A stretch of 53,204 nucleotides of DNA, the filler included, from Porpidia crustulata (taxonomy: Eukaryota), in the NCBI GenBank assembly GCA_964255105.1. It is 4 parts of 4 records of this genome, joined end to end, with 100 filler letters (N's around TTAATTAATTAA, not from the genome) between each part and the next. Parts side by side here need not be neighbours in the genome. Positions count along the whole stretch, not along the records: positions 1 to 13,288 come from CAXUWE010000449.1; 3 more parts are not named here. One strand, 5' to 3'. Below the pieces are notes generated by a model. The model saw only the letters and a list, made by a program, of their open reading frames with translations, had not been told where the DNA came from and did no database searches. Positions 1 to 40,039 of this stretch are shown piece by piece. Positions within the stretch are counted from its first letter, which is position 1; each line of letters begins with the position of its first letter. The translations under genes and the position numbers were made by a program.

Positions 1-446
1 TATTTCTTCGTTGATTTACCACCATAGCTAGGTAGTTAGGAGGCCCCTAACAAATGAAGATTGGAATGAAAAAAATTCAAAAGTCTTCTTACGAATCATG
101 ATGAAAACAGCGAAATAAATTGTTTAATTTAAAAGCAAATGGTGGATATAGCTTTACATAACGATATTAGGCATGCTACAGTCAATTAAATAAGTAGATA
201 ATGACTGCTGTATAAAAGTAGGATTTCTGGTCGTTCAAGCCTTTCCCGCCAGTTTTTTTTGGGGGGGGGGGTGGTTCTTCAGCCCCCCCATTTTCCACAC
301 GACGATATTTTCAAAGTCGAGAAGCTGCGCTCTACATTACTCCAAATCCTTCACAGAACGGTTATAATTAAACAGCAGTCTCGACAGTCATCATTAAATA
401 CTCTAAAAATTATCGATCAACATCGCACGATTCCATATTGTCATCC

Positions 447-1076
447 ATGGAGAAGTCAGCCGCCCTCACCGCTCGCCTGAAATTCCTGGACACCTCAGCC
501 AATTTCTACTCTACCATCGCACCTTCGATTGCGGCCCATTTAATGCTCGAATGTAATGCCGTAGCTACAGAGAACAACAAAACCTTGAAAAATCCCAGTG
601 GGGATGGTTTCTGCAATGCCTGTGGCACCATTCGCATCTCCGGTCGAAACTTCCGTACCACGATCGAAGTCCCTAAAAAAGGAAAGGAATTTTCTTCGGA
701 GACTAAGGAAATGGCTTTTGAGGATTCAAAAAGGATTAAAGTCCAGGGGCAAGTAGTGACTGAGTGTTTTGTGTGTCACCGAAAAACGAGAGTACCTGTA
801 TCGGCTTCACAAGGGTCCAGGCCAAGTCAGGCGCGAGAGATAAGTAGCACAAACACAGCTTCGACAACCACTGCGTCTGCTTTTGATACTAAAACAGCGG
901 GCGAAACTTCGGACACAACCACTCATAAACCCAGTCCTTCTTACAACAGCAGTAAGAAGAGGACTAAAATTCGAAAACACGGGGGATTACAGGCTATGCT
1001 TGAGAAATCAAAGGGAAACGATCATACGGCTGCAGGCTCGCAGCTGAATCTCATGGATTTTATGAAACATATCTGA
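447..1076 (+). CDS. RNase P/MRP subunit, Rpr2/Rpp21/Snm1 family (zinc-binding)
   Basis: ATG at 447 (the track's 438 start is TTG). Two CxxC pairs (CNAC, CFVC), a basic C-terminal tail SKKRTKIRKHGGLQAML and a terminal LNLMDFM, as I recall for fungal Rpr2-domain proteins. No introns. Confidence 0.7.
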   Translation: MEKSAALTARLKFLDTSANFYSTIAPSIAAHLMLECNAVATENNKTLKNPSGDGFCNACGTIRISGRNFRTTIEVPKKGKEFSSETKEMAFEDSKRIKVQGQVVTECFVCHRKTRVPVSASQGSRPSQAREISSTNTASTTTASAFDTKTAGETSDTTTHKPSPSYNSSKKRTKIRKHGGLQAMLEKSKGNDHTAAGSQLNLMDFMKHI

Positions 1077-1601
1077 GCTATGGAAGCTGAATTTTTACAC
1101 TATCACACATGGCGAGTGATCTGATTTGTATGTTGAGGTCGCTGGCGAGTCCTGAGACGTGTGGAGAAATTGATCTAAGCGATAATAGAATCATACATAG
1201 CCCGAAGAGGATTTTGACTCTGATAGCAACAGATTATAGGTGGCGGCGCGGGAAAAGACACTAACAACAACGCGAGTCGTTGAACCAGTCGCATAGTGAA
1301 AATCAGCAATATCGATACTGGATCAATGCTACTGACAGCCCGCTCAACGGTGTGGCCAGTCTACTTATAGGTTGGGGGGTAAGAGCATTAGAGTAGGTGC
1401 GCTTGATGGTCGTCGCTATCTCGAGAGGGGCATATTGCAACTTTGTTCTGCCGGCTGTAACGGTTCCTTGATAGGCACGGGAGTTAAGGTCTCTGCTTTC
1501 GGTCTAACGAGGATCTTCAAAGGGTTTAAAATGGCATGACCCTCATCAAACGTTCTAGTATTGTTTTTCACCGCTTCCGGTGGAGCGGGTCAATACTCCT
1601 T

Positions 1602-2802
1602 TCAGCTTATAGCTATGTCCCTCTCGTTAACCTTCTTCAGCCGCTCAATGTGGTCTAAGATTCTCTCCTTCCATTTCTGATAGTCTGCTCTTCGCCTATC
1701 GCTCAAATAGTCGACCTGATCTCGCATCTAGATTATATCAGGAAGCGATTCCAGTTGGAAGAATATGACTCTCACCATTGTTCCTAAACCAGCTTGCAGG
1801 TAATTTTGGTCTCCGTCTCTATTCTGATTAAAGTTTACAACCGTTTCATGAATACCTTCCTCGTCATCCGAAACCTCCCCGTGCTCGTCTCCCGCTTCGG
1901 CAGCCACTAGCCCACCCCCGAGTGGTATATTTGCAAACCAGTCCATGTCCGCCCAACCCTCATGACCAATCAGTCTCATACATTCGTTAACGTCGGCTTC
2001 TTCGACTTCTTCCCTATCGTGATGTTCGCTTGCGCTGCTTTTGAGCAGTCTCAGTGCCTCAGCCCTCTGTCGAGGATATTCGTCTGAATCTGTCCCGACC
2101 CCTGACAAGCGGGTTATAGCAAGAAAGAGTACAGCGATGATCAAAGCTGGGGCTTTGACCATACCCAACGAATACGGATTTCCATCTTGTTGTGACGGAA
2201 GGGCAAGGATGGACGATACTCCTGCAAAGACGTGGGGTGGAGCTTGAGGTGCACCAAAATTCTTGCACAAGTGACGTATCGTAGGCATGACCCATTTTGG
2301 AATGTCGTCTGTATTTGAATGCCGTTGTGAGGCCTTTCTTCTGGGGGTTGTGGGCTTGGGCAGTGGCCTTTTCTGTGGTGTCTTGGGCTTTGCTGGGGAA
2401 GTTGTAGGTCTTGCTGTCGATCTATCTACCATTGGAAGCCGCTCACTCCGCCGTTTACCAGGAGGCAATGCTGCCTCAAGAAACTTGTAAAGTTTTTGGT
2501 ATACTTTCGGTGGACATGGTGGGCGAGGTTGGCATTGAGGTAGATTCAGTTTTTGTTGCAATCTAGGTCGTTCAGTAGATGCCTTAATACTTAAAAACAA
2601 GTGAATGAGAGCCCTCACACCTCTCACAAGCAAGATTTGCGCACGCGTAAGATCTAGCTATCTCCTCATCGGCTTTTAGGCTACTTGCCTTACTTCGGGA
2701 CTGGGCGAGAAGAGACGCAGCAAGCTCTTGGAGCTCGGTTGGTATGGGCCCTGAGAAGGCTGGTATCAATCCGTTCAACGCCTGCGCAATTGATTTGTCC
2801 AT
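1602..2802 (-). CDS. ORC6: Origin recognition complex subunit 6
   Basis: Exons 2802-2621, 2562-1776 and 1727-1602; introns GTGTGA..TAG (58 nt) and GTGAGA..TAG (48 nt). Motifs SLLAQSRSKASSLKADEEIARSYACANLACERL, PRPPCPPKVYQKLY and C-terminal GLGTMMRDQVDYLSDRRRADYQKWK match fungal Orc6. Confidence 0.9.
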
Positions 2803-3304
2803 CTTAAGAATTGTTGAACAGAGACTAGGGAGGAGCTTAGAAAGACTTGAATGTTTTCACACGCATGATTCACATGCAGGAACGACTCTTACCCGTCGAC
2901 CTAGGCTTCTCTAGGCTTTATTCAGATCTAATCTGATTAGATTAGTGCTCATCTACCACACTGAATCTTTTGTAGGAACATTTATATTCAATACGCAATG
3001 TGGCTCTAGTATTTGCAATTAAATGTGGTTTCAGGTTTAAAGATGTGAGCTTGAAATAGGCTTGGATGTACTGCCTCATATCACATCCTGTTTTTATGTT
3101 GCGTCTGTATCCCAAGCACAACACCTAGCACTTATAAATCTCATCTCATGAGGTGTGCTAACAAGAAATCTGTACTATTTATCCTCGATGACCCATCTTT
3201 ACCAGATTTCCTATTTCTTCTTATGTTTTGAGCGCACCCCAAGATTTCAAGGGATATTTTCAGCAGGCAAGGAAGAATAGACGCTGGGAAGAGTCATCAG
3301 CAAT

Positions 3305-6300
3305 ATGGTACCTATGATTTCGGATCCGCTTTCGCTGGGGAGGGAAATGCTTCTCGAGCTTGAAGACGGTGTGCTGTTTCATGGGCATAGCTTTGGTGCG
3401 GAGAAAAGCGTATCGGGCGAGATGGTGTTTCAAACGGGTATGGTGGGATATCCTCAGTCGATCACGGATCCTTCTTATCGAGGACAAATCCTGGTCATCA
3501 CATACCCACTAGTTGGGAATTACGGAGTTCCATCAAGAGAGACACGGGATCATTTGCTCAATGACCTGCCTGCTCACTTCGAGGCTGCCGAAATTCATGT
3601 TGCCGGGCTCGTTGTTGCATCCTACTCTGGCGAAGATTTCTCTCATCATCTTGCAGCGTCTTCATTGGGAAGATGGATGAAGGAGCAAGGCGTTCCTGCC
3701 TTACAAGGTGTTGACACTCGAGCTCTGACGAAGCGGATTCGGCGGGAAGGAAGTATGCTAGGCAAGATGCTGATAGAGGACAGGCCCAGAACAAACGGTG
3801 TTGTCAACGGGGTTACCGCTGCGAGGAAAAATATAAAGAACCCCTTTTCGCAAGATGTGCGAGCAAAATTCGACCGTATTGATTGGTCCAATCCAAATAC
3901 GAAGAATTTGGTGGCTGATGGTATGGGCTTCCGAAATCCAAGCTCTTGAAATCCTGACATTGGGTGTAGTCTCGGGACGAGAGCCTCGCATCTATAAACC
4001 ACCATTGGTTAATGCTCTGAGACACCCGTCTGGACGTCTTCTCCGTGTCGTCTGCGTAGATGTTGGACTTAAATTTAATCAATTAAGGTGTCTGGTCTCG
4101 AGAGGTGTAGAGGTCCAAGTTGTGCCATGGGATTACGACTTTCCGAGTCTTTCGGGCAAGGATTACGATGGGCTGTTTATATCTAATGGCCCTGGAGACC
4201 CTGCAATACTCACATCTACCATACAACATATCTCAAATGCCATGCGAGAGGGGAGAACCCCGATCTTTGCAATCTGCCTCGGCCATCAGCTTCTTGCTCG
4301 TGCTGCGGGAGCACAAACCGTGAAAATGAAGTATGGAAATCGAGGGCACAATATCCCCTGCAACAGTCTCACCTCTGGCAAATGTTACATCACTTCCCAA
4401 AATCACGGTTTTGCAGTGGATACAACGACTCTTCCCATCGATTGGGAAGAAACATTTGTCAACGCGAACGATGGTAGCAACGAAGGGATCCGACACAGAA
4501 CACGTCCATACTTCAGTGTACAGTTCCATCCCGAAAGCACTCCTGGTCCTCGCGACACGGAATTTCTTTTTGACGTCTTCATTGACGCGATCAAGGATTG
4601 TGTTGTCTCTACGAAAGCATTAGAGCAGCCAGTCGCATTTCCAGGTGGCAAGATAGAGGATAATGTACTGCTCCATCCTAGGGTGATCGCAAAGAAGGTT
4701 TTAATACTTGGTAGCGGAGGCCTCAGTTTTGGTGAAGCTGGTGATTTTGACTAGTCTGGTAGCCAAGCGATCAAAGCTCTTAAACAAGAGAACATTTATA
4801 CCATTCTTATAAATCCAAATATTGCTACTATCCAGACATCAAAAGGGCTTGCTGACAAAGTCTACTTCCTTCCCGTGACTGCAGATTCTGTACGAAAAAT
4901 AATTGAGTATGAGCGGCCAGACGCAATATATGTTACATTTGGTGGGCAGACTGCACTGCAAGTAGGTATTGCCATGAAGAATGAGTTTGATGATCTGGGG
5001 GTCAAAGTCTTGGGCACGCCCATCGATACTATCATCACAACTGAAGACCGGGAGCTTTTCGCCCGTAGTATGGAATCCATCGGCGAGAAGTGTGCAAAAT
5101 CGGCCTCGGCAAGCTCTGTTGAAGAGGCTCTACAAGTGGTCAAAGACATAGGATTTCCCGTTATTGTACGTGCCGCATACGCCTTGGGGGGCCTGGGCAG
5201 TGGTTTCGCAGAGGACGATCAGCAGCTTCTTGAGCTGTGTAACAAAGCATTCGCCGCAAGTCCGCAGGTCCTGATAGAAAGAAGTATGAAAGGCTGGAAG
5301 GAAATTGAGTACGAAGTTGTTCGAGACGCCAGGGATAATTGCATCACAGTCTGCAACATGGAGAATTTTGATCCTCTGGGTATCCATACGGGCGACTCTA
5401 TCGTTGTGGCTCCATCGCAAACTCTCTCTGATGAGGATTACAATATGCTGCGAACCACGGCCGTTAATGTTATCAGACACCTGGGTGTGGTTGGAGAGTG
5501 CAACATACAGTATGCCCTCAACCCATTCTCACGGGAATACTGCATTATAGAAGTCAATGCTCGGCTTTCAAGATCATCTGCCCTCGCTTCGAAGGCGACC
5601 GGTTATCCTCTAGCATTTATAGCTGCAAAACTGGGGCTAGGGATACCATTAAACGAAATCTCAAACACGGTGACTAAGGTTACAACCGCATGCTTTGAGC
5701 CATCACTCGACTACGTCGTGGTAAAGATTCCGAGATGGGACCTGAAGAAGTTCACCAGGGTCTCTACGGAGCTGAATTCGTCCATGAAGAGTGTTGGAGA
5801 AGTGATGAGTATCGGTAGAACGTTCGAAGAAGCCATTCAGAAAGCGATTCGTTCTATCGACTTCCACAACCTAGGATTCAATGCCACGAATGCTTTGATG
5901 TCTATTGACAACGAGCTACAAACACCGTCGGACCAGCGACTTTTCGCAATAGCTAATGCTATGTACTCAGGATATAGCGTTGATAAGATATGGGAAATGA
6001 CCAAAATCGATAAGTGGTTTCTGAGCAAATTGAAAGGCTTGAGTGATTTTGGGAAGAGAGCCGAGGCACTTGATTCCGCCAGCTTGTCGCCAACTATAAT
6101 ACGCAAAGCAAAGCAACTGGGCTTCTCTGATCGGCAACTCGCTAGCTTCTGTAGCCTCAATGAATCGACTGTCCGTCGTCTACGTGTTGAAGCAGGGATA
6201 AAACCTTTTGTGAAACAAATCGATACTGTCGCTGCCGAATTTCCCGCATTCACAAACTATTTATACCTGACATATAATGGAATTGAGCACGATATCAGCT

Positions 6301-9300
6301 TTGATGATCACGGCGTCATGGTATTGGGATCTGGCGTATACCGTATCGGATCATCAGTCGAGTTTGACTGGTGCTCAGTCAGAGCAATTCGTACGTTAAG
6401 AGAGCAGGGTTTCAAGACTGTCATGGTCAATTACAACCCAGAGACTGTGAGTACTGATTACGACGAGGCGGACAGACTCTACTTTGAGACTATCAATCTT
6501 GAGACTGTATTGGACATCTATCAATTGGAGTCCTCAAGTGGCGTCATCATCTCAATGGGTGGTCAGACTCCCAATAATATCGCTCTTCCCCTTCATCGTC
6601 TAAATGTGAAGGTTCTCGGAACTTCTCCAGACATGATTGACATGGCCGAGGACCGATATAATTTCTCGCGTATGTTAGATCGTATTTACGTTGATCAGCC
6701 AGCGTGGAAAGAGCTGAGTAGCTTCGAAGAAGCGGCAGAATTCTGCAACAATGTCAGATATCCTGTATTGGTAAGGCCGTCTTATGTTCTGTCCGGTGCT
6801 GCAATGAACACTGTGTACTCCAAAGATGATCTTGCAAGCTATCTGGCTCAGGCTGTCGAGGTATCTAAAGACCACCCAGTGGTAATCACTAAGTACATTG
6901 AGAACGCAAAGGAAATAGAAATGGATGCTGTTGCCCGGGATGGTAAGATGGTGGGACACTTCATCTCCGAACATGTCGAGAACGCAGGTGTGCACTCGGG
7001 TGATGCTACTCTCATACTTCCACCTCAAGATCTTGAACCTGAGACGGTCCGAAGAATTGAAGAGGCGACAAGGAAGATTGGAAATGCATTGGACATTACT
7101 GGACCCTACAATATCCAATTCATCGCGAAGGACAACGAAATAAAGGTGATCGAATGCAATGTTCGCGCTTCCAGATCATTTCCATTTGTCTCCAAAGTAA
7201 TGGGTGTAGACCTCATAGAGATGGCGACCAAGGCTATCATGGGAGTTCCTCTAGTCGCATATCCGCCAATAGACATTCCGAAGGACTGTGTTGGGGTAAA
7301 AGTCCCCCAGTTCTCGTTTTCCAGGCTTTCTGGTGCGGATCCAGTGTTGGGTGTGGAGATGGCTTCGACTGGCGAAGTCGCTTGCTTTGGGCGAGACAAG
7401 TACGAAGCATACATCAAGGCTTTGATGTCGACGGGCTTTCGGTTGCCTAAGAGAAACATTCTACTGTCGATTGGTACATACAAGGAGAAAGCGGAAATGT
7501 TACCTTCTATCCGAAATCTGCACAAAATGGGGTACAATCTATTTGCTACTGCTGGAACAGCCGACTATCTAGAAGAGCACGGCATACCGGTGCAGTACCT
7601 CGAGGTCTTGAGCAACGAGCAAGGTAACCAAAAATATGAGCACTCGTTGACACAGCATTTAGCAAATAAACACATCGATTTGTACATCAATCTACCGTCA
7701 AGTAATAGATCCAGACGCCCAGCAAACTACATGAGTCAAGGTTATCGTACTCGAAGGATGGCTGTAGATTATCAAACTCCCTTAGTCACCAATGTCAAGA
7801 ATGCGAAAATCCTCATCGAAGCCATAGCTAGACATTACGATTTCGAGATTTTGAATGTTGACTCTCGGACAGGACATCGTATGGCGGTCTTGCCAGGGTT
7901 GATCAATATCGCAGCGTTCGTCCCTGGTGTGTCCGTCAACGGCAGCAACGATTTCCAACTTGTAACCAAAGCCTCGATTGCTGCAGGCTTTAGCATGATC
8001 CGGATCATGCCCATGGGCCTCGAAGGATCTCTGACAGACAAGAGATCGCTTGGGATAGCCCAGCAAAACAGTAGACAGGGGGCGTTCTGCGATTACAACT
8101 TCTCTGTTGCTGCTACCTCAACGAACGCGGAGCAGGCCAGTCAAGTGACATATGAGGTTGGATCGCTTTTTATTCCGTTCAATCATTTGTCATGCAACAT
8201 CAGCAAAGTGGCTGCCATAACTTCCCACTTTACTGCGTGGCCTGATAATAAGCCTATGGTTACGGACGCGAAGACGACGGACCTTGCCTCCGTCCTGCTA
8301 CTGGCCAGCCTGCATAGTAGAAATCTACATGTCACGAGCGTGACAACAGAAGATGACATCAAGCTGATTGCCCTAAGCAAATCAAAAGGGCTGCAAGTCA
8401 CGTGCGATGTGTCGGTCTACTCGCTGTTCCTTTCGCAAGAAGATTATCCTCAGTGCACTTTCCTACCGACACTCCAAGACCAAAAAGCGCTATGGGAACA
8501 CATGGCCATCATCGACATCTTTTCAATTGGCAGTCTCCCATACCAGGTTGCTTTTGAGATGAAAAAGGAGATTTCGCCAGCAATAGGAGTGGCCGATACC
8601 ATCCCACTGTTATGTACCGCTGTCGCTGAAGGCAGGCTTACTATAGAGGATATTATCGCGAAGCTGCACGACAGCCCCAAGGAGATCTTTGAGCTTCACG
8701 AACAGACGGGGACTTCGATCGAGATTGAGGTAGATCGATCCTTTGTGCTGCAGCCCTCATCCACTTGGTCACCATTTGCTGGCAAAACCATGCGAGGATC
8801 GGTGCAGAGAGTCACCTTTCAAGATAAGACAATCTGCCTGGACCGTGAGATACTGCCGAATGCACGTCACGGAGTCGACATGTCTACTCATTCAATACAG
8901 TCAAATCAGATGAAGTCACCAGCGCTCAAGGCCGTGCCTTCGCCCAGCATAGGCTCAAGATCCGAGACTCCGAGAGGGAGACGTCAATCTTTGGTCACCG
9001 CCCCTGCAGCCCTCCGTCGACGACAAGTCGATCTGCCAACTATGCAATCTCCAAATGGCGCGATACCAGGAGGAACGGAAGAATTTGGCCCTCCACTTCC
9101 TCCGGTGGACCATTCTGCGACATCCCTATCATCATCTTTCCTAGAATCCCTGGCAAAATCTCCGTTTAAGCAAAAAGACATCCTCTCCGTTTCTCAATTC
9201 ACTCGCCATGATCTCCACATCCTATTCACCGTCGCCGATGAAATGCGCCTCGGCGTTCAACGTCAAGGAGTCCTTGACATCCTCAAAGGCCGTGTCCTAT

Positions 9301-10160
9301 GCACTCTCTTCTACGAGCCTTCCACTCGCACCTCCGCCTCCTTCGACGCCGCCATGCAACGCCTCGGCGGCCGCACCGTCGCCATCGCCACCTCTCACTC
9401 TAGCACCCTAAAAGGCGAAACCCTCGAAGACACCATCCGCACCCTCGGCTGCTACGGCGACGCAGTCGTCCTGCGCCACCCCGACGAATCCAGCGCCGAC
9501 CGGGCCGCCAAGTGCTCCATGGTCCCCGTCATCAACGGCGGCAACGGCTGCCGCGAACACCCGACCCAGGCCTTCCTCGACCTCTTCACCATCCGCGCCG
9601 AGCTCGGCACCGTCACCCGGCGCACCATCACCTTCGTCGGTGACCTCCGCTACGGCCGCACCGTCCACTCCCTCATCAAACTGCTGCGGCACTACGAAGG
9701 CGTGCGCGTCCAGCTCATCTTCCCGCCCTCGCTCGCCCTGCCCGCCGACGTTCGCCAGCAGCTCATCGCCGCGGGGCAGCTCGCCTCGTCCGGTCACGAA
9801 CTAACCAAGGAGGTCGTCGCCCGCTCCGACGTGCTGTACTGCACGCGCGTGCAAAAGGAGCGCTTCGACGACCTGGACGAGTACGCCCGGCTCAAGGATA
9901 GTTTCGTCGTGGACGGCGCGGTGCTGAAGAACGCTAAGAGCCATATGATTGTCATGCATCCGCTGCCGCGCAACCAGGAGATTGCGGTCGATGTGGATTT
10001 GGACCTCCGGGCGGCTTATTTTAGACAGGTGAGTGGATTTTTTTGTGGCGATCGCCAGTCTTATATCTATCGTAATATGACGCTAATACATGGGAAACTA
10101 CAGATGCGATACGGACTTTATGTCCGGATGGCGCTGCTTGCCTTGGTTTTGGCGCCGTGA
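3305..10160 (+). CDS. URA2: Multifunctional pyrimidine enzyme GATase-CPSase-(inactive DHOase-like)-ATCase, URA2/pyrABCN; carries an in-frame TAG at 4752-4754
   Basis: Exons 3305-3920, 3970-10028 and 10104-10160 (introns 3921-3969 and 10029-10103). GATase motifs: SNGPGDP, ICLGHQL, FHPE. CPS motifs: [40 protein letters not shown]. The DHOase-like domain lacks the HxH metal ligands ([10 protein letters not shown]), as expected for fungal URA2. ATCase motifs: [18 protein letters not shown]. The frame is continuous across the single TAG. Confidence 0.95.
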
Positions 10161-11307
10161 AGTTTATATTTTTGCGATACGGGGTCAATGTCGAAGGAAT
10201 AGGCGAGCTGCGAAGAAGAAATGGAGCGGAGACGTTGCAGATAGAAAAACCTCACATCATGCGAACTATGTTGGAAATCCTTCGGCAAAATTTTCGGGTA
10301 TCCCAGTTCTGGGTGCAAAAAAAGTTGTTGTATATAGATTATATTTGGGGGCGTCTGAAAAAGTTTTTGATTATTGTTGAAAGTCGTCACATGGACTACG
10401 GGGGCATTCCACTTCTTGGCTCTCTACTCATCAAATAAACATAAACGATCATCGGGGTATTTATATACGAGACGTTGTTGCCGCCGTCCCCTTGCGTGTA
10501 TTATATTGTAGCGTCACCGCCTTTGTTCATGCTCGAAGCATCCTGCGCTCCACGCTCCACGCCGGCCGTCCACCCTTCTTCCAAGGGGGAACCTTTACCC
10601 TCGTCCTTCGATGATCTAACCACGTAGCACGTAGTATCCGATCCGATTCCCCCTTTTCCCCGAAGTCGAGACATTGACACGGAGGCAGCGCCCGATTAGG
10701 GGGACTCAGGGGCGACGACCGGGGCGCGAACGCTGGGAGACCTCACGTATACATAAACACTTCGGTAGGGCCGCGCATTTTGTGCTTGCGTTGATAACGG
10801 GAACGGGATCGCGCGCTTGGTGGGGGAGCGTTTCGTTGCTGCGCGAGTGGGTTTGGGGCATCTGCTGCTTGGCTTACGGGTATTTTATTTTTTTTCGTTG
10901 CCGTCTCGAGTGTTTCTCTTTTGGTGGAGTTTGGATGGGCCGCGGTCGTAGAGCGGAGGGAGCTGGGTCGAGGATGTGTGTTTGGCTGACTGACGATTTG
11001 GATCATGTGCCGGTGGTTGTGATCGCGAGAGCATTAGGGAGTGAGCAAAGAGAGGAACGAGTTGACCTTGGCGGATTCTGTCAGGTGGGAGTGTTCGCAT
11101 GATGGCATGGCTCCTGTTGGGCTGGCGTACTGGAGCGATTGCAATGTATACAATCTTTCCTCTTAAAAATAATAATTCTACCATCTCACATCCATCCCAG
11201 CCTCGCGACTTCTAAAGATACTAAATCTCTTGGTTCCCGTCGTTCACTTGAGTACATATCTGGCGTGCCGATTGGCGATGCCCACAGATTCTTGCATCGT
11301 GATATTG

Positions 11308-12495
11308 CTAAGTATAGTGATATTCGTCCAGTGGTATCGATTTTGTTCTCCGCGCGTTACCCATCAATTTATCTTGAGGTCTTCTCCTCATGAGCAAATA
11401 CGTCACCACCGTTGTAGCCGTTAACGGGACTGTCATTGCCCAGTACATCCAAAAACCTGTATTGTTCAAAACACCATTTTCGAAATAGGACATACTCATA
11501 ATGGAGGAGACAAAGGTTCCGGGCAAGCCAACCAATGTAGCCAATGAGATTATGTTCATAGAAGCACTTTCATGATTTTGCTTTGCCACAATTGAGTCAA
11601 GATAATCGTCGTGGTACAAATTTTGATCTTTGGAAAGCCGAATCAAGTTGGTGTAATCATCTTCTAGTTGCTGCCGTTTTTTCAGGAGAGAGAGCATCTG
11701 ATGCTTCAATTCAGGTAAATTCATATTCTCCAAGTCGATCGTCTCGGGGTCCAAAAGTGGCGTTTCATCTGCCAGCCAGGCTTCAATCTTCAATCTGTCA
11801 GTGTCGGACATTGACAGTATTTCGGATTTTAAGGAAGCAGCCCGTGAGAATGCGGCATGATCTTCTTCGCAGATTTCGGAGACGAGCTGCAACGTGTCCA
11901 CGTCGGTGATTGTGGTAATGCGCTTGGTCATTGCCGATTCCTGCAGTACTATAGGTGCCATAGACTTTGTAATTTCTTGAAGGCCATCGACCAATTCCTT
12001 GATATGTGAAACGAGTTCTGCGAACTTCTTCCGATCTCTTATCACCCATCTCGCCTTCTGCCCCATTTTTAACCCTCTCCCCTCGGGAAGACCATTTTGA
12101 AAGTGCAAGAAGGCAGCAGCAAGAGGGTTCGTGAGGTCCTCTTCTTCACCACCTGCTATCGCCAATGCTGTGGCTTTTCGGCAGCCATAACGTTCTTGGA
12201 TTCTCTCGGAGTCGTTGAATAAGTCGTGCAACGTTTGTAGGGTCTGAACAACAAGGCCTTTGAATTGGAACGAGTCAAGATGGCGAGGCTCGTCACACTG
12301 TGATGTGCTCGTCAGTCCCATCATCTGACCCCATGTATACAGTCTACATTTCTCAATATTGAATTTCACAAGCAGACGATTGTAGTCGGCTTCTTGGTGA
12401 CGCGCAGCTTGCACCAGGTCAAATGCATCGACACATGCTTTGAAGAGCGCACTAATAGTCAAGGCACTCGCAAAGATACCAATTGCCTCTGCCAT
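11308..12495 (-). CDS. HeLo (prion-inhibition and propagation) domain protein with C-terminal CorA-like two-transmembrane module
   Basis: Likely ATG at 12495 (MAEAIGIFASALTISALFKACVDAF), 395 aa, no introns. HeLo hallmarks: hydrophobic N-terminal helix, KFNIEKCRLYTWG, ERYG, KARWVIRDRKKFAELV..IKELVDGL. The C-terminus ESASMNIISLATLVGLPGTFVSSIMSMSYF...FWMYWAMTVPLT resembles the TM1/TM2 region of fungal CorA-like proteins. Confidence 0.8.
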   Translation of the reverse strand: MAEAIGIFASALTISALFKACVDAFDLVQAARHQEADYNRLLVKFNIEKCRLYTWGQMMGLTSTSQCDEPRHLDSFQFKGLVVQTLQTLHDLFNDSERIQERYGCRKATALAIAGGEEEDLTNPLAAAFLHFQNGLPEGRGLKMGQKARWVIRDRKKFAELVSHIKELVDGLQEITKSMAPIVLQESAMTKRITTITDVDTLQLVSEICEEDHAAFSRAASLKSEILSMSDTDRLKIEAWLADETPLLDPETIDLENMNLPELKHQMLSLLKKRQQLEDDYTNLIRLSKDQNLYHDDYLDSIVAKQNHESASMNIISLATLVGLPGTFVSSIMSMSYFENGVLNNTGFWMYWAMTVPLTATTVVTYLLMRRRPQDKLMGNARRTKSIPLDEYHYT

Positions 12496-13130
12496 GTTGG
12501 AGAACTTTCGGAGAAAGGTTCTTGTCGTAAAGGCAACGCGTGCTAATTGATAGTTCAAGAGAGCAGCAATGTGCAGTTGGCAGAGATTAGCGAGTAGGCT
12601 CGGCAATGGGCGTTGTGATGCTACGCTGCACAGCCACTCACAAGAGGTGCCAAAAGTCATTGGAGTAGCTAAGTCGAGGTAGCTAGACTAAGAGCTCTAA
12701 TGATTTTTGGCATCCCCGATTATCCATCCAGACTGGCGCGCTACGAGGATGGGAGGATGGCACGATGGCTAATGGCAGCAATTTACTGTAATTAGGTTTG
12801 ATGGCTGGAAGTTGGGATTAGTAGCCCACCTCCATATGAATGTATGGCTCTGCCCGATTCCAGGCTTCTTTGCCCTAGTATTTTAATTAAAGCAGTACTA
12901 CAGTACCATAGCTCAAGTTGGTGGACGTGATTGGAACAAGGAGGCAGGAATTTCATGTTCAACCGTAGGGGTATTTCTCGTAAAGTCGTTGGTAGCACGA
13001 GGCGAGCCACTCCCCAACTTTCACACCATCATCGACCTGAACGATCGTGGGATTTACGGCTCCACCATCTCTCAAATGCTAAGCTCAAAGTCCCCGTGCT
13101 GGTAAGAAGAAAGCCCCAAGTACGAGTAGC

Positions 13131-13288
13131 ATGACGCTCTGGATGCTTCGTCAAGCTATTCGCTCCTTGCAAGACAGCCTGGCACCGAAGCCTCGAGGGA
13201 AAGCACTGTACCACCACAGCAAGCGCAGACCGTGCCGACCCTATATCTCTTCTACACTCACCCTCAAATCGCCGTCCCCACTTCCTCC
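13131..13288 (+). CDS. Possible 5' end of a gene truncated at the contig end (basic, presequence-like N-terminus)
   Basis: The ORF MTLWMLRQAIRSLQDSLAPKPRGK... stays open to the linker and is rich in R/K/S/L. No recognisable domain. Confidence 0.25.
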
Positions 13289-13388
13289 NNNNNNNNNNNN
13301 NNNNNNNNNNNNNNNNNNNNNNNNNNNNNNNNTTAATTAATTAANNNNNNNNNNNNNNNNNNNNNNNNNNNNNNNNNNNNNNNNNNNN
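13289..13388. other. Artificial contig linker N44-TTAATTAATTAA-N44
   Basis: Exactly 100 nt; the 12-mer gives stops in all six frames; identical to the other two linkers. Confidence 0.98.
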
Positions 13389-15139
13389 TCCTCGTAGCAT
13401 CCGACGTTGATGCAGCTGACGCCGAGGTTGTACCGGGCGCGCACGAAGTTGGGCCGTAGCGTGAGGGCGCGCTCGTACGCGGCGATGGCCTCCTCGCTGC
13501 GGCCGCTGTTGGCCAGGGTGGCGCCGAGCCGGTTCCAGAGTAGGTGGGCGTGGCCGGGACTGTTGCTGGCGCCGGCCTCGGTGCTGGCGAGGGCCGCGTC
13601 GAAGCAATCGACCGCTTTGGCGTACTCCTCGGCGCCGTAGAAGAGGACGCCGAGGCCGACTTGGACGTCTGGGTCCATGTGTTCGCCGCCGGGCGAAAGT
13701 TGCGCGGCGGAGATGAAGAGGGCGGTGACTTTTTGGTGGAGGTCGTGGCGGTCGGTGAAGCCCATGTCTGTGTCGGGGGTCAGGGAGGCGGGCGAGATGA
13801 TTTGGGGGTATTTGGTTGCGAGCCAGCGTTCCAGCGTCCGATAAGCGGTAGCGTCGTAGCCGTCGTTGGTGTATGAGATTGCAAGGCCCATGAGGGCATC
13901 TAGGTTTGTGGGATCGAGTTTCAGGGCTTGTTCGAGAGCACGGATGGCGGGGGTTTCTTTTTCGTTTTGGGCTTGGGCGGTGCCTAGGGCGGCCCAGGCG
14001 TCGACATGTTGAGGTGATTGTTGCACAGCGGCTTCAAAAGCAAGGGCGGCCAGCGAGAGATTGCCGCCTTCGGACATGATCTTTTGACCCTCGACAAACG
14101 GATCTTTGGTGGTAGAGAAGACGTTTTCTTCTTCGAAGAGATAATTTCCAAGTTGGGGATCTCGATAACCGTCATTGAATTGGCTATCAAAGCCATCCCA
14201 GGTGTCATAATCGCGTAGAGGCATGCCGTCATTCATGCGGAATTGGTCTTCGTTGGCCATTTGCCTGGCCGCCGCTGTTTCAGCTTGGATGCTGCGCCAG
14301 ACACTCTCGAAATCGCCAAAGTCATTGGTTTCGGAGAGGACTGACCTATCTATGTCACTGAGTTCCCTTTCCATGGCGGCTTCGGCTTCGGCATCGAGCT
14401 CCTGCTGGCCTACGGCGTCAATCTGGGCAAATTGCTGTTCCCAGTCCTGGTCGTCTAATTCGACCATCCGGGCCTTCCCTTTTCCAACTGCTGTAGCATC
14501 ACCCGGTCGTTGTTGAACAGGGAAATTTCCGTACTGAGGCCCGATTGTTCCCATGTTTGTGCCATATCCCATGCCCATAGGCCTCTGGTATCCGGACATA
14601 GCCATAGGCGTCTGCGACACTGGACTCGATAACCTTGCAGGAGCATTCCTCTCCATCTGTTGAAATCGCTGAAACTCTGCTGGGCTGAACCCTGCTGGCA
14701 CCAGTCCCCCACCCTTTGGCATCTGGAATGCAGCTTCCATGCGTGCCTGTTCTGCAGGGTCGTACTCGGTCGCCCACGCTGGCGATCCTGTGTTTGGTGA
14801 ACCTATCCTGTAGTTTTCGAGATCTTTTCGCATTTGTTCCATGGCAAATGGCTGAGGAGCGTCTTGATAGAGTTGGCCATTCTGTTGTAGGAAATTTTGC
14901 ATCATCTGCAAGTAAACATTCAGTAACGTACATCAGTAGTTACGCTGCAGTCGAGCATAGGGCTTTACCTCGTCTTGGCCCGGTCCGTTTCTTTGGCTTC
15001 TGAAGCTCTCCTGTAAGCTCCCTGAGCCCTGGCCCACCAATCTATCCCGCTGCAAAGACTTATCATCCTGGACATGTTTCGTAAACTGGGAGAGAGGATT
15101 GCCGGCCGATGAGCATTCGGCGCCGCCGAGGAAGGACAT
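13389..15139 (-). CDS. PEX5: Peroxisomal PTS1 receptor Pex5 (TPR), 3' end truncated at the contig end
   Basis: Exon 1 15139-14969 (MSFLGGAECSSAGNPLSQFTK, with the conserved N-terminal Cys), intron 14968-14906, exon 2 14905-13389. WxxxF/Y motifs (WATEY, WEQQF). TPR motifs LAFEAAVQ, QAQNEKE and LWNRLGATLANSGRSEEAIAAYERAL..PNFVRARYNLGVSCIN. Confidence 0.95.
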
Positions 15140-26641: not shown

Positions 26642-26741
26642 NNNNNNNNNNNNNNNNNNNNNNNNNNNNNNNNNNNNNNNNNNNNTTAATTAATTAANNN
26701 NNNNNNNNNNNNNNNNNNNNNNNNNNNNNNNNNNNNNNNNN
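26642..26741. other. Artificial contig linker N44-TTAATTAATTAA-N44
   Basis: Identical 100-nt six-frame-stop spacer. Confidence 0.98.
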
Positions 26742-39939: not shown

Positions 39940-40039
39940 NNNNNNNNNNNNNNNNNNNNNNNNNNNNNNNNNNNNNNNNNNNNTTAATTAATTAANNNNN
40001 NNNNNNNNNNNNNNNNNNNNNNNNNNNNNNNNNNNNNNN
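39940..40039. other. Artificial contig linker N44-TTAATTAATTAA-N44
   Basis: Identical 100-nt six-frame-stop spacer. Confidence 0.98.

Follow-up and report, generated by a model that had tools for sequence, protein, structure and literature searches.

Within a 53,204-nucleotide stretch of Porpidia crustulata DNA (the window, by which we mean the whole stretch analysed), the minus strand at 11308..12495 encodes a 395-residue protein that joins a HeLo domain to the membrane module of a CorA-like protein. We find that this fusion is one member of a family in which the HeLo core is constant and the tail behind it is exchanged; its architecture, the origin of its tail, the interchangeability of tails among relatives and the pattern of conservation along the protein are all shown by the sequences. 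As to function, we tentatively favour a one-component HeLo death switch, in which the captured tail would serve as a bait or docking handle and, in this member, as a membrane anchor beside CorA-like channels. The gene is built as follows:

11308..12495, minus strand: open reading frame (ORF) of HeLo plus CorA-like tail, 395 residues, single copy in the assembly, spanned by one Logan contig with 0 differences
11812..12495, minus strand: HeLo domain, residues 6-204 by Pfam, with the structural match reaching residue 228
12430..12486, minus strand: hydrophobic helix at the N-terminus, residues 4-22, predicted to be the HeLo segment that enters the membrane, mean hydropathy 1.88, aligning with the N-terminal segment of HET-S
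11653..11811, minus strand: family extension, residues 229-281, with the W240 helix, an acidic linker and the LE-x-L/M-x-x-x-ELK motif, after which the variable tails join
11563..11652, minus strand: junction and stalk, residues 282-311, helical, predicted local distance difference test (pLDDT) 54-62
11485..11562, minus strand: CorA-type first transmembrane helix (TM1) with LPGTF, the SMS triplet of residues 334-336 (nucleotides 11488-11496) standing at the GMN position
11386..11457, minus strand: CorA-type second transmembrane helix (TM2), residues 347-370, then a basic cluster, helix in both models

Translation of window 11308-12495 gives an uninterrupted frame in which every motif quoted in the original prediction is present, and the description of the gene as intronless stands as a statement about the DNA. 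A word-based search returned 37 relatives and a full scan 113 representatives at E<=1e-30, the best 150 overall being listed. A complete core was present in 138 of 175 proteins, and excluding 19 that a midpoint-rooted tree placed apart left 119 relatives, which share HeLo and an extension of about 70 residues carrying the W240 helix and the LExLxxxELK motif (W240 conserved in 114, E256 in 99, E262 in 93 and K264 in 88). The extension is modelled as helices at 231-243, at 250-256 and from 260 onward. The closest named members come from Letrouitia, Vezdaea, Tricladium and Halenospora, and further ones from Xylaria, Trichoderma, Pyrenula, Cladophialophora, Penicillium, Lindgomyces, Rhizodiscina and Blastenia, genera that we take to span several ascomycete classes; their clusters comprise 1-5 sequences each. 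The same full HeLo-CorA architecture was seen in four relatives, 64-69% identical and drawn from NCBI, Logan and ENA. A first metagenome scan found no relative and a second found three loci of relatives, none CorA-tailed.

Behind this core the tails differ widely. BLAST sorts the 113 tails of at least 20 residues into 63 clusters, 46 with a single member. CorA-like tails are the largest class (11 of 113 at E<1e-3 with the donor-only profile described below, and three more, degenerate, at 0.012-0.022), and most family members bear a soluble tail on the same core. Other tail domains scored above the Pfam cut-off in 29 of the 115 relatives scanned, 14 types by hand count: C2H2 (7), PAH (5), chromo, Sec2p, LisH, Taxilin and AD (2 each), and one tail each with a receiver, CLIP1 knuckle, PAN3 CCCH, Vts1, EB1, SH3 or DUF7924. 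NACHT, NB-ARC, kinase and prion domains were absent from the Pfam hits shown for these 115 relatives (best five hits only for six proteins). For many relatives the protein comes from automatic gene calling, which may have truncated the tail at an intron or extended it into non-coding DNA; four CorA tails end at, or run on through, points where an intron appears to lie in fungal CorA-like genes.

All five tails searched against this genome match a non-HeLo locus best, at 42-59% identity: a Skn7-type receiver (59%), a Sin3 PAH (42%), a Vts1 N-terminus (57%), an EB1 C-terminus (48%) and a Sec2 coiled coil (56%). We take the donor loci to be Skn7, Sin3, Vts1, Bim1 and Sec2, names drawn in part from Pfam labels and flanking frames. 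Homo- or hetero-oligomerisation is the role of many of these tails, among them LisH, EB1-C and the coiled coils of Sec2 and Taxilin. Several tail types recur in diverged genomes (PAH 6, Vts1-like 8, LisH-like 7). In one relative (P0117, residues 331-564) the PAH2-like domain of the captured Sin3 piece precedes the PAH1-like one, opposite to the arrangement at the Sin3 locus of this genome.

By every sequence and structure test run, the constant part is a HeLo domain. PF14479 scores 135.6 bits over residues 6-204 (E 2.6e-39; curated cut-off 23.2 bits), which bears out the HeLo N-terminus originally proposed and makes it longer than the roughly 175 residues claimed, the fold reaching residue 228. 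The significant PDB sequence matches were three HET-s/HET-S N-terminal chains (E 1.9e-14 to 5.6e-11; nine listed to E 10). A full-length AlphaFold2 model (mean pLDDT 77, 56 sequences) aligned with HET-S (2wvo_A) over 195 residues at a VIA Z score of 15.3 and a root-mean-square deviation of 3.8, the next row reaching Z 7.6, and in Foldseek HET-S-like folds were its sole four matches at E<=0.001 (E 2e-7 to 2.7e-6). Pfam gave no match at E<=1 to NACHT, kinase or the HET-s prion domain in the 395-residue protein, no Q/N/G-rich stretch follows residue 200, and the C-terminus is modelled as helices in both models. The protein is thus, judging from its sequence, not an amyloid-type effector, a nucleotide-binding oligomerisation domain (NOD)-like receptor (NLR) or a HeLo-kinase, in agreement with what had been noted at first.

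In the available parts of the papers that we cite here by PMC number, the first helix of HET-S is described as inserting into the membrane, HeLo activation as occurring via oligomerisation of the C-terminal part, and HET-s as becoming toxic only with D23A plus P33H together (PMC3531502). The corresponding segment is the best-kept region of our protein in its ten closest relatives (residues 1-58, 74-90% identity), and G6, A9, L17 and A24 are conserved in 109-112 of the 119. A 19-residue window of hydropathy >=1.6 occurs in 94% of 118 family N-termini (median 1.88). The first helix has a hydropathy of 1.88 here, about 1.8 in HET-S and about 1.4 in HET-s, the latter two hand-calculated from the PDB-hit alignments on the Kyte-Doolittle scale; its N-terminal placement holds if translation starts at 12495. 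The protein has the His of toxic HET-S at position 33 and the Asp of non-toxic HET-s at position 23. Toxicity is therefore predicted as likely, yet not as assured.

Five more HeLo matches were seen in this genome (C841, C635, C290, C1488 and C1139; L002-L004, L017-L022); by eye, one has many ankyrin-like repeats as its tail and two have kinase-like C-termini, one has a TAG after HeLo and one tail was unrecognised. More distant HeLo proteins (P0172, P0145, P0140) have other partners: a ubiquitin-conjugating-like region (judged by eye), a GYF domain and, at the N-terminus, a low-molecular-weight phosphatase.

The CorA-type C-terminus claimed for the protein was confirmed, though by a route other than Pfam. 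PF01544 stays below its cut-off, with E 0.5 for the full length and E 0.0094 (15.7 bits) for the last 130 residues, scores spanning 10.1-15.7 bits against a curated 27. With a donor-only profile of 84 non-HeLo fungal CorA-like proteins, containing no fusion row, the tail reaches E 5.7e-22 and aligns at 76 of 80 positions, and reversed tails gave a best E of 0.1; the donors in it had been chosen with a nine-row tail profile, two rows of which were non-HeLo CorA-like proteins and one of which was mis-cut. Of 7999 candidates scored with that nine-row profile, 184 passed E<=1e-5; 120 of these were listed, and those with names are fungal, many with PF01544. In PDB, to E 10, all 11 sequences matched by the nine-row profile are CorA, ZntB or CmaX (E 0.013-0.61), and the alignment puts the GMN of Thermotoga-type CorA chains on the SMS position. 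Conversely, a profile of five fusion tails alone matches 118 of 118 CorA-like donor proteins at E<1e-5, none of which matched the HeLo core. On these alignments, the tail from about residue 300 to 370 is the end of the stalk together with both transmembrane helices from an expanded ascomycete CorA-like family, similarity to the donors beginning mostly around residues 270-305. The family consensus reads KRDSxSMKTIAxLTMVFLPGTF...SM...FWxYxAVTVPLT, and the PF01544 matches of these proteins are themselves weak. The W, Y and P of TM2 are nearly invariant in a 92-row alignment, and TM2 hydropathy is only moderate (0.9-1.2).

Other searches with the tail were less informative. Foldseek with the tail model gave 0 matches at E<=0.001 and the best VIA rows (Z 6.5) were coiled coils, a two-helix model being unable to decide. 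The ESM Atlas returned tail matches at 0.91, one cluster being 17% CorA, and no usable match for the full-length query; a word-based search with residues 255-395 found three proteins only. A full-length 11-row profile gave, in the tail region, weak bacterial sodium-channel rows (E 0.47-1.6) and not CorA, which we take to be hydrophobic chance matches because all 11 hits of the tail-only profile fall in the CorA superfamily and the donor-only profile reaches the E-value given above. Within this genome, 11 Pfam CorA matches and L005 make up an expanded CorA-like set (L005-L016), several paralogues lacking GMN and having STT, SMS, SMN or GAN there instead.

The original prediction pointed to SMS standing where CorA has its GMN selectivity motif; a reading of SMS as something particular to this protein is not supported. 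Among the donors (n=116) the triplet at this position is SMS in 20, SMT in 14, AMP in 14, STT in 10 and GMN in 2. As the commonest donor triplet, SMS came with the donor and is an inheritance, not an innovation. The CorA cytosolic funnel domain is absent, residues 1-228 being HeLo. Thus the tail carries the CorA membrane module and yet the protein, with no GMN, no funnel and a score below the cut-off, is by membership not a CorA channel. In both models one helix runs from about residue 260 (the ELK motif) via the stalk through TM1 to 337-339 and is followed by TM2, the pLDDT of the tail being 53-71 in the full-length model. This continuous helix would place HeLo where the CorA cytosolic domain would lie, so the amyloid-free membrane anchoring that had been suggested is plausible, based on the modelled helix 260-337. 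The idea of a CorA channel whose soluble domain has been replaced is not supported, since the constant part is the HeLo core and CorA is one of many interchangeable tails.

How often the tails were acquired was examined on trees of the core. On a 59-row tree the CorA-tailed cores require six changes, five of them forced by well-supported branches, and a single CorA-tailed clade is rejected (approximately unbiased test, p-AU 1e-51); the CorA-tailed group was defined by tail searches and P0011 was added after the first tree. A 119-row core tree needs 15 changes for 10 tail types, where the minimum is 9, and with unlabelled rows ignored PAH, LisH, Vts1, C2H2, Taxilin, AD and SH3 each change twice on its well-supported branches. 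The CorA tails thus go back either to several captures or to a single old tail that was frequently exchanged for others, as far as the sequences indicate; P0019, whose tail has GMN and is nearest to other CorA paralogues, argues for at least two captures. In the ten closest relatives the TM pair is well kept in four (47-64% identity) and decayed or lost in six (10-27%), and the junction and stalk (282-311) are the least conserved stretch (3-37%). Donor introns are missing in the tails of P0030 and P0117, as capture through mRNA would predict. P0117, however, is an NCBI gene model, P0030 comes from a Logan contig of undefined type and the four CorA tails mentioned above appear to be affected by introns, so that mRNA is only one possible route of capture.

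In the death switch that we tentatively favour, HeLo and the extension would be the chassis, and the slot behind it would have been refilled repeatedly with host interaction modules. TM1 and TM2 would anchor the protein with HeLo facing the cytosol, and the tail would dock on or co-assemble with its own copies or endogenous CorA-like oligomers, or bait their attackers. The trigger might be a partner altered by a parasite effector, or a foreign allele met after hyphal fusion; such a change would cluster or strain the long helix, free the N-terminal helix of HeLo and lead to membrane damage and cell death. The tail would then parallel the amyloid of HET-S or the NOD domain of NLRs, and the lesion would be made by HeLo rather than by the CorA piece. 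We have modelled this scheme on HET-S activation via the C-terminal part (PMC3531502) and on the guard idea for PLP-1/SEC-9 (PMC12881547). A broader claim, that these proteins form a minimal NOD-less and amyloid-less immune receptor family of filamentous ascomycetes, with a HeLo executioner and an exchangeable decoy taken from core proteins (Sin3, Skn7, Vts1, Bim1, Sec2, Pan3, CorA-like channels), we hold to be possible but doubtful.

Several points weigh against the switch. Position 23 is Asp or Glu in 103 of the 119 relatives. If unlabelled rows are ignored, the well-supported branches of the 119-row tree force only one CorA-tail origin, which an ancestral CorA tail, later replaced, might explain. 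The 46 singleton tails make up most clusters and find no explanation in it. The donor CorA-like family is expanded and variable, as opposed to the single-copy core genes behind other tails, so that a bait logic fits less neatly here. Toxicity, partner and trigger are predictions, and the loci of relatives that could be read number only three. These three loci are single open frames, and relatives lie at unrelated loci; around the two with enough flank (L024, L025) the genes are ordinary and no NLR-like frame was recognised by eye.

It seems somewhat unlikely to us that the proteins are instead neutral or non-lethal chimeras, in which a mobile HeLo core gains tails by chance and HeLo is inactive as in HET-s, or a regulator or scaffold, with tails that only set location or drift. 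The acidic residue at position 23, the numerous singleton and decayed tails and the tiny clusters with relatives at unrelated loci would all be expected of such chimeras. The recurrence of the same tail types in diverged genomes and on separate branches would not be, nor would an insertion helix that is strongly conserved and equal in hydrophobicity to that of HET-S.

The original prediction of a dedicated channel would have the CorA piece homo-oligomerise into a pentamer, as a pore or ring in which five HeLo domains are brought together beforehand, with HeLo being primed by it or gating it in the way that the sensor domain gates CRISPR-associated CorA. Decay or loss of the TM pair in most of the closest relatives beside an N-terminus kept at 74-90%, and a stalk that is the most variable part, make this unlikely in our view; furthermore, the same core bears soluble tails in most members, SMS is simply the donor's motif, and HeLo brings its own membrane-attack helix as its best-conserved part. 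What speaks for a channel is that the fusion leaves stalk and TM1 as one helix in both models, that both membrane helices and LPGTF are intact, that CorA-like tails are the largest class and are found at five or more points of the tree if every other row is counted, and that CorA-type proteins are effectors of type III CRISPR defence (PMC10600005). Two donors (P0250, P0202) weakly match PADLOC models of defence-associated CorA-like proteins (E 9e-5 to 0.04); the PADLOC models gave no match to four fusion proteins (E<=0.1).

A selfish or allorecognition killer, that is a het gene or spore killer whose short isoform would be the poison and whose capped long isoform or host allele the antidote, appears quite unlikely to us. 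This scheme draws on a second in-frame ATG at 12660, which would yield a 450-residue protein:

12496..12660, minus strand: in-frame upstream extension, 55 codons, open; conserved 5' leader or longer isoform

The context of the upstream ATG (CCA-ATG-A) is weaker than that of the 395-residue start (AAC-ATG-G). Compared without gaps, the extension is identical at 9 of 30 and 8 of 30 positions to the called extensions of P0003 and P0295 (0 of 2000 shuffles), a resemblance that would suit an antidote, in that such a cap would be expected to block the N-terminal helix. An extension is called in two of the ten closest relatives aligned (P0003, P0008), with weak similarity in P0008 (29 of 2000 shuffles), which counts against the killer. 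A longer isoform may cap the first HeLo helix, and conserved leader DNA is the alternative. A single open frame, patchy occurrence and shifting loci are compatible with a killer, and het-S itself is an allorecognition gene (PMC10197012), but we found no convincing terminal repeats, transposon ends, target-site duplication or second copy near the gene. A signature of repeat-induced point mutation was not seen. Finally, mis-assembly or chance read-through of two genes is very improbable and the former was rejected: the contig does end 793 nucleotides upstream at a depth of about 8, but a Logan contig covering 9813-13262 spans the gene with 0 differences and 0 gaps (probably built from the same reads, it verifies the assembly and not the biology), and the four relatives share the full architecture.

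The window is composed of four pieces of about 13.2 kb each, in falling order of length, joined by three identical artificial linkers (N44-TTAATTAATTAA-N44 at 13289-13388, 26642-26741 and 39940-40039). Gene neighbourhoods across the linkers are therefore not shown, and the contig of the HeLo-CorA gene, which has one copy in the assembly at the DNA level, is window 1-13288, its end lying 793 nucleotides upstream of the ATG of the ORF. Two features frame the gene:

3305..10160, plus strand: URA2/CAD-type gene by Pfam (carbamoyl-phosphate synthase small and large chains, aspartate carbamoyltransferase), on the same contig and convergent with the HeLo ORF
13289..13388, no strand: artificial linker N44-TTAATTAATTAA-N44, the sequence beyond it not belonging to the contig of the gene

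Of the setting among housekeeping genes first described, the downstream side stands, URA2 being the sole demonstrated neighbour; on the upstream side, the tetratricopeptide repeat gene at 13337-14905 was rejected as a neighbour, lying past the linker on another contig. In the aspartate carbamoyltransferase part of URA2 (9300-9950, plus strand), third-position GC jumps from about 0.5 to 0.92 within one frame, and Logan pieces abut at 9813-9816 with no bridge among those listed; the jump may reflect local codon bias, conversion or a join. At the start of the contig (window 1-55) lies a short repeat, marked by very high word depth and numerous loose ends. In L024, at 2737-5488, a relative adjoins a divergent pair resembling a 2-oxoglutarate oxygenase and a decarboxylase of amidohydrolase fold (named by eye); this pair and URA2 may both touch pyrimidine metabolism, possibly by chance.

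Taken singly the fusion is moderately interesting, and the family behind it raises that interest. What triggers fungal cell-death receptors is named as an open question in PMC12881547. An executioner fused to identifiable pieces of host proteins would offer concrete baits, with no upstream receptor to seek first; it would add another mode of HeLo control beside amyloid, NOD and kinase, and would extend the logic of integrated decoys to NOD-less fungal proteins. The CorA-tailed members would provide a handle on the many ascomycete CorA-like proteins without GMN. If the decoy-receptor reading were true, the catalogue of tails would list host proteins attacked by fungal parasites or competitors, and the form with the CorA tail would stand guard, from within the membrane, over a channel family that has been little studied. 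Should the proteins prove non-toxic, the family would still be a clear case of recurrent domain capture on one chassis.

As regards known systems, HeLo has been found with many uncharacterised domains (PMC3531502) and with NOD, amyloid, Goodbye and kinase parts (PMC4986451, PMC12881547, PMC10197012, PMC9815663, PMC3321046), in the parts of these sources available. We found no description of a HeLo-CorA fusion or of the wider family in literature whose coverage mostly left out subscription papers and supplementary architecture tables; the fusions themselves are already in public databases, one labelled 'Prion-inhibition and propagation/EB1-like C-terminal motif'. With the CorA, ZntB, Mrs2 and Alr1 Mg2+ channels the protein shares a distant homology of the two-helix module (seen at E 0.013-0.61 to CorA, ZntB and CmaX), and it lacks the GMN and the cation- or nucleotide-sensing domain of these channels and of the SAM-AMP-binding CorA of type III CRISPR systems (PMC10600005, available part). 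With the expanded ascomycete CorA-like proteins it has in common the stalk end, TM1, loop, TM2 and an SMS-type motif, without their large cytosolic domain.

Like the HeLo/HELL-NACHT NLRs and the MLKL-like HeLo/HELL-kinases, the family follows an all-in-one design, HeLo being fused to a controlling part; this genome also holds a HeLo-ankyrin and two HeLo-kinase-like genes, their tails named by eye. In contrast to those NLRs and kinases, the Pfam hits shown for 115 relatives include no NOD, repeat or kinase domain, and the second part of the family's proteins is small and interchangeable. The repeated fusion of conserved host-protein fragments to an immune-type protein recalls the integrated decoys of plant NLRs and the putative ones of Sordariales NLRs (PMC12258605), which in the available text are proposed solely within NLRs; the carrier here is an executioner domain alone and not an NLR, making the likeness one of analogy at most. 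Compared with HET-S/HET-s of Podospora anserina (HeLo plus prion-forming domain; het-S/nwd2), it has no amyloid motif, carries a family-specific extension and a membrane tail, and has Asp23 as in HET-s; unlike at het-S/nwd2, no NLR adjoins on the URA2 side, the contig ending 793 nucleotides upstream. With HET-S itself it shares the HeLo fold, the hydrophobic first helix and His33, and presumably activation through the C-terminal part.

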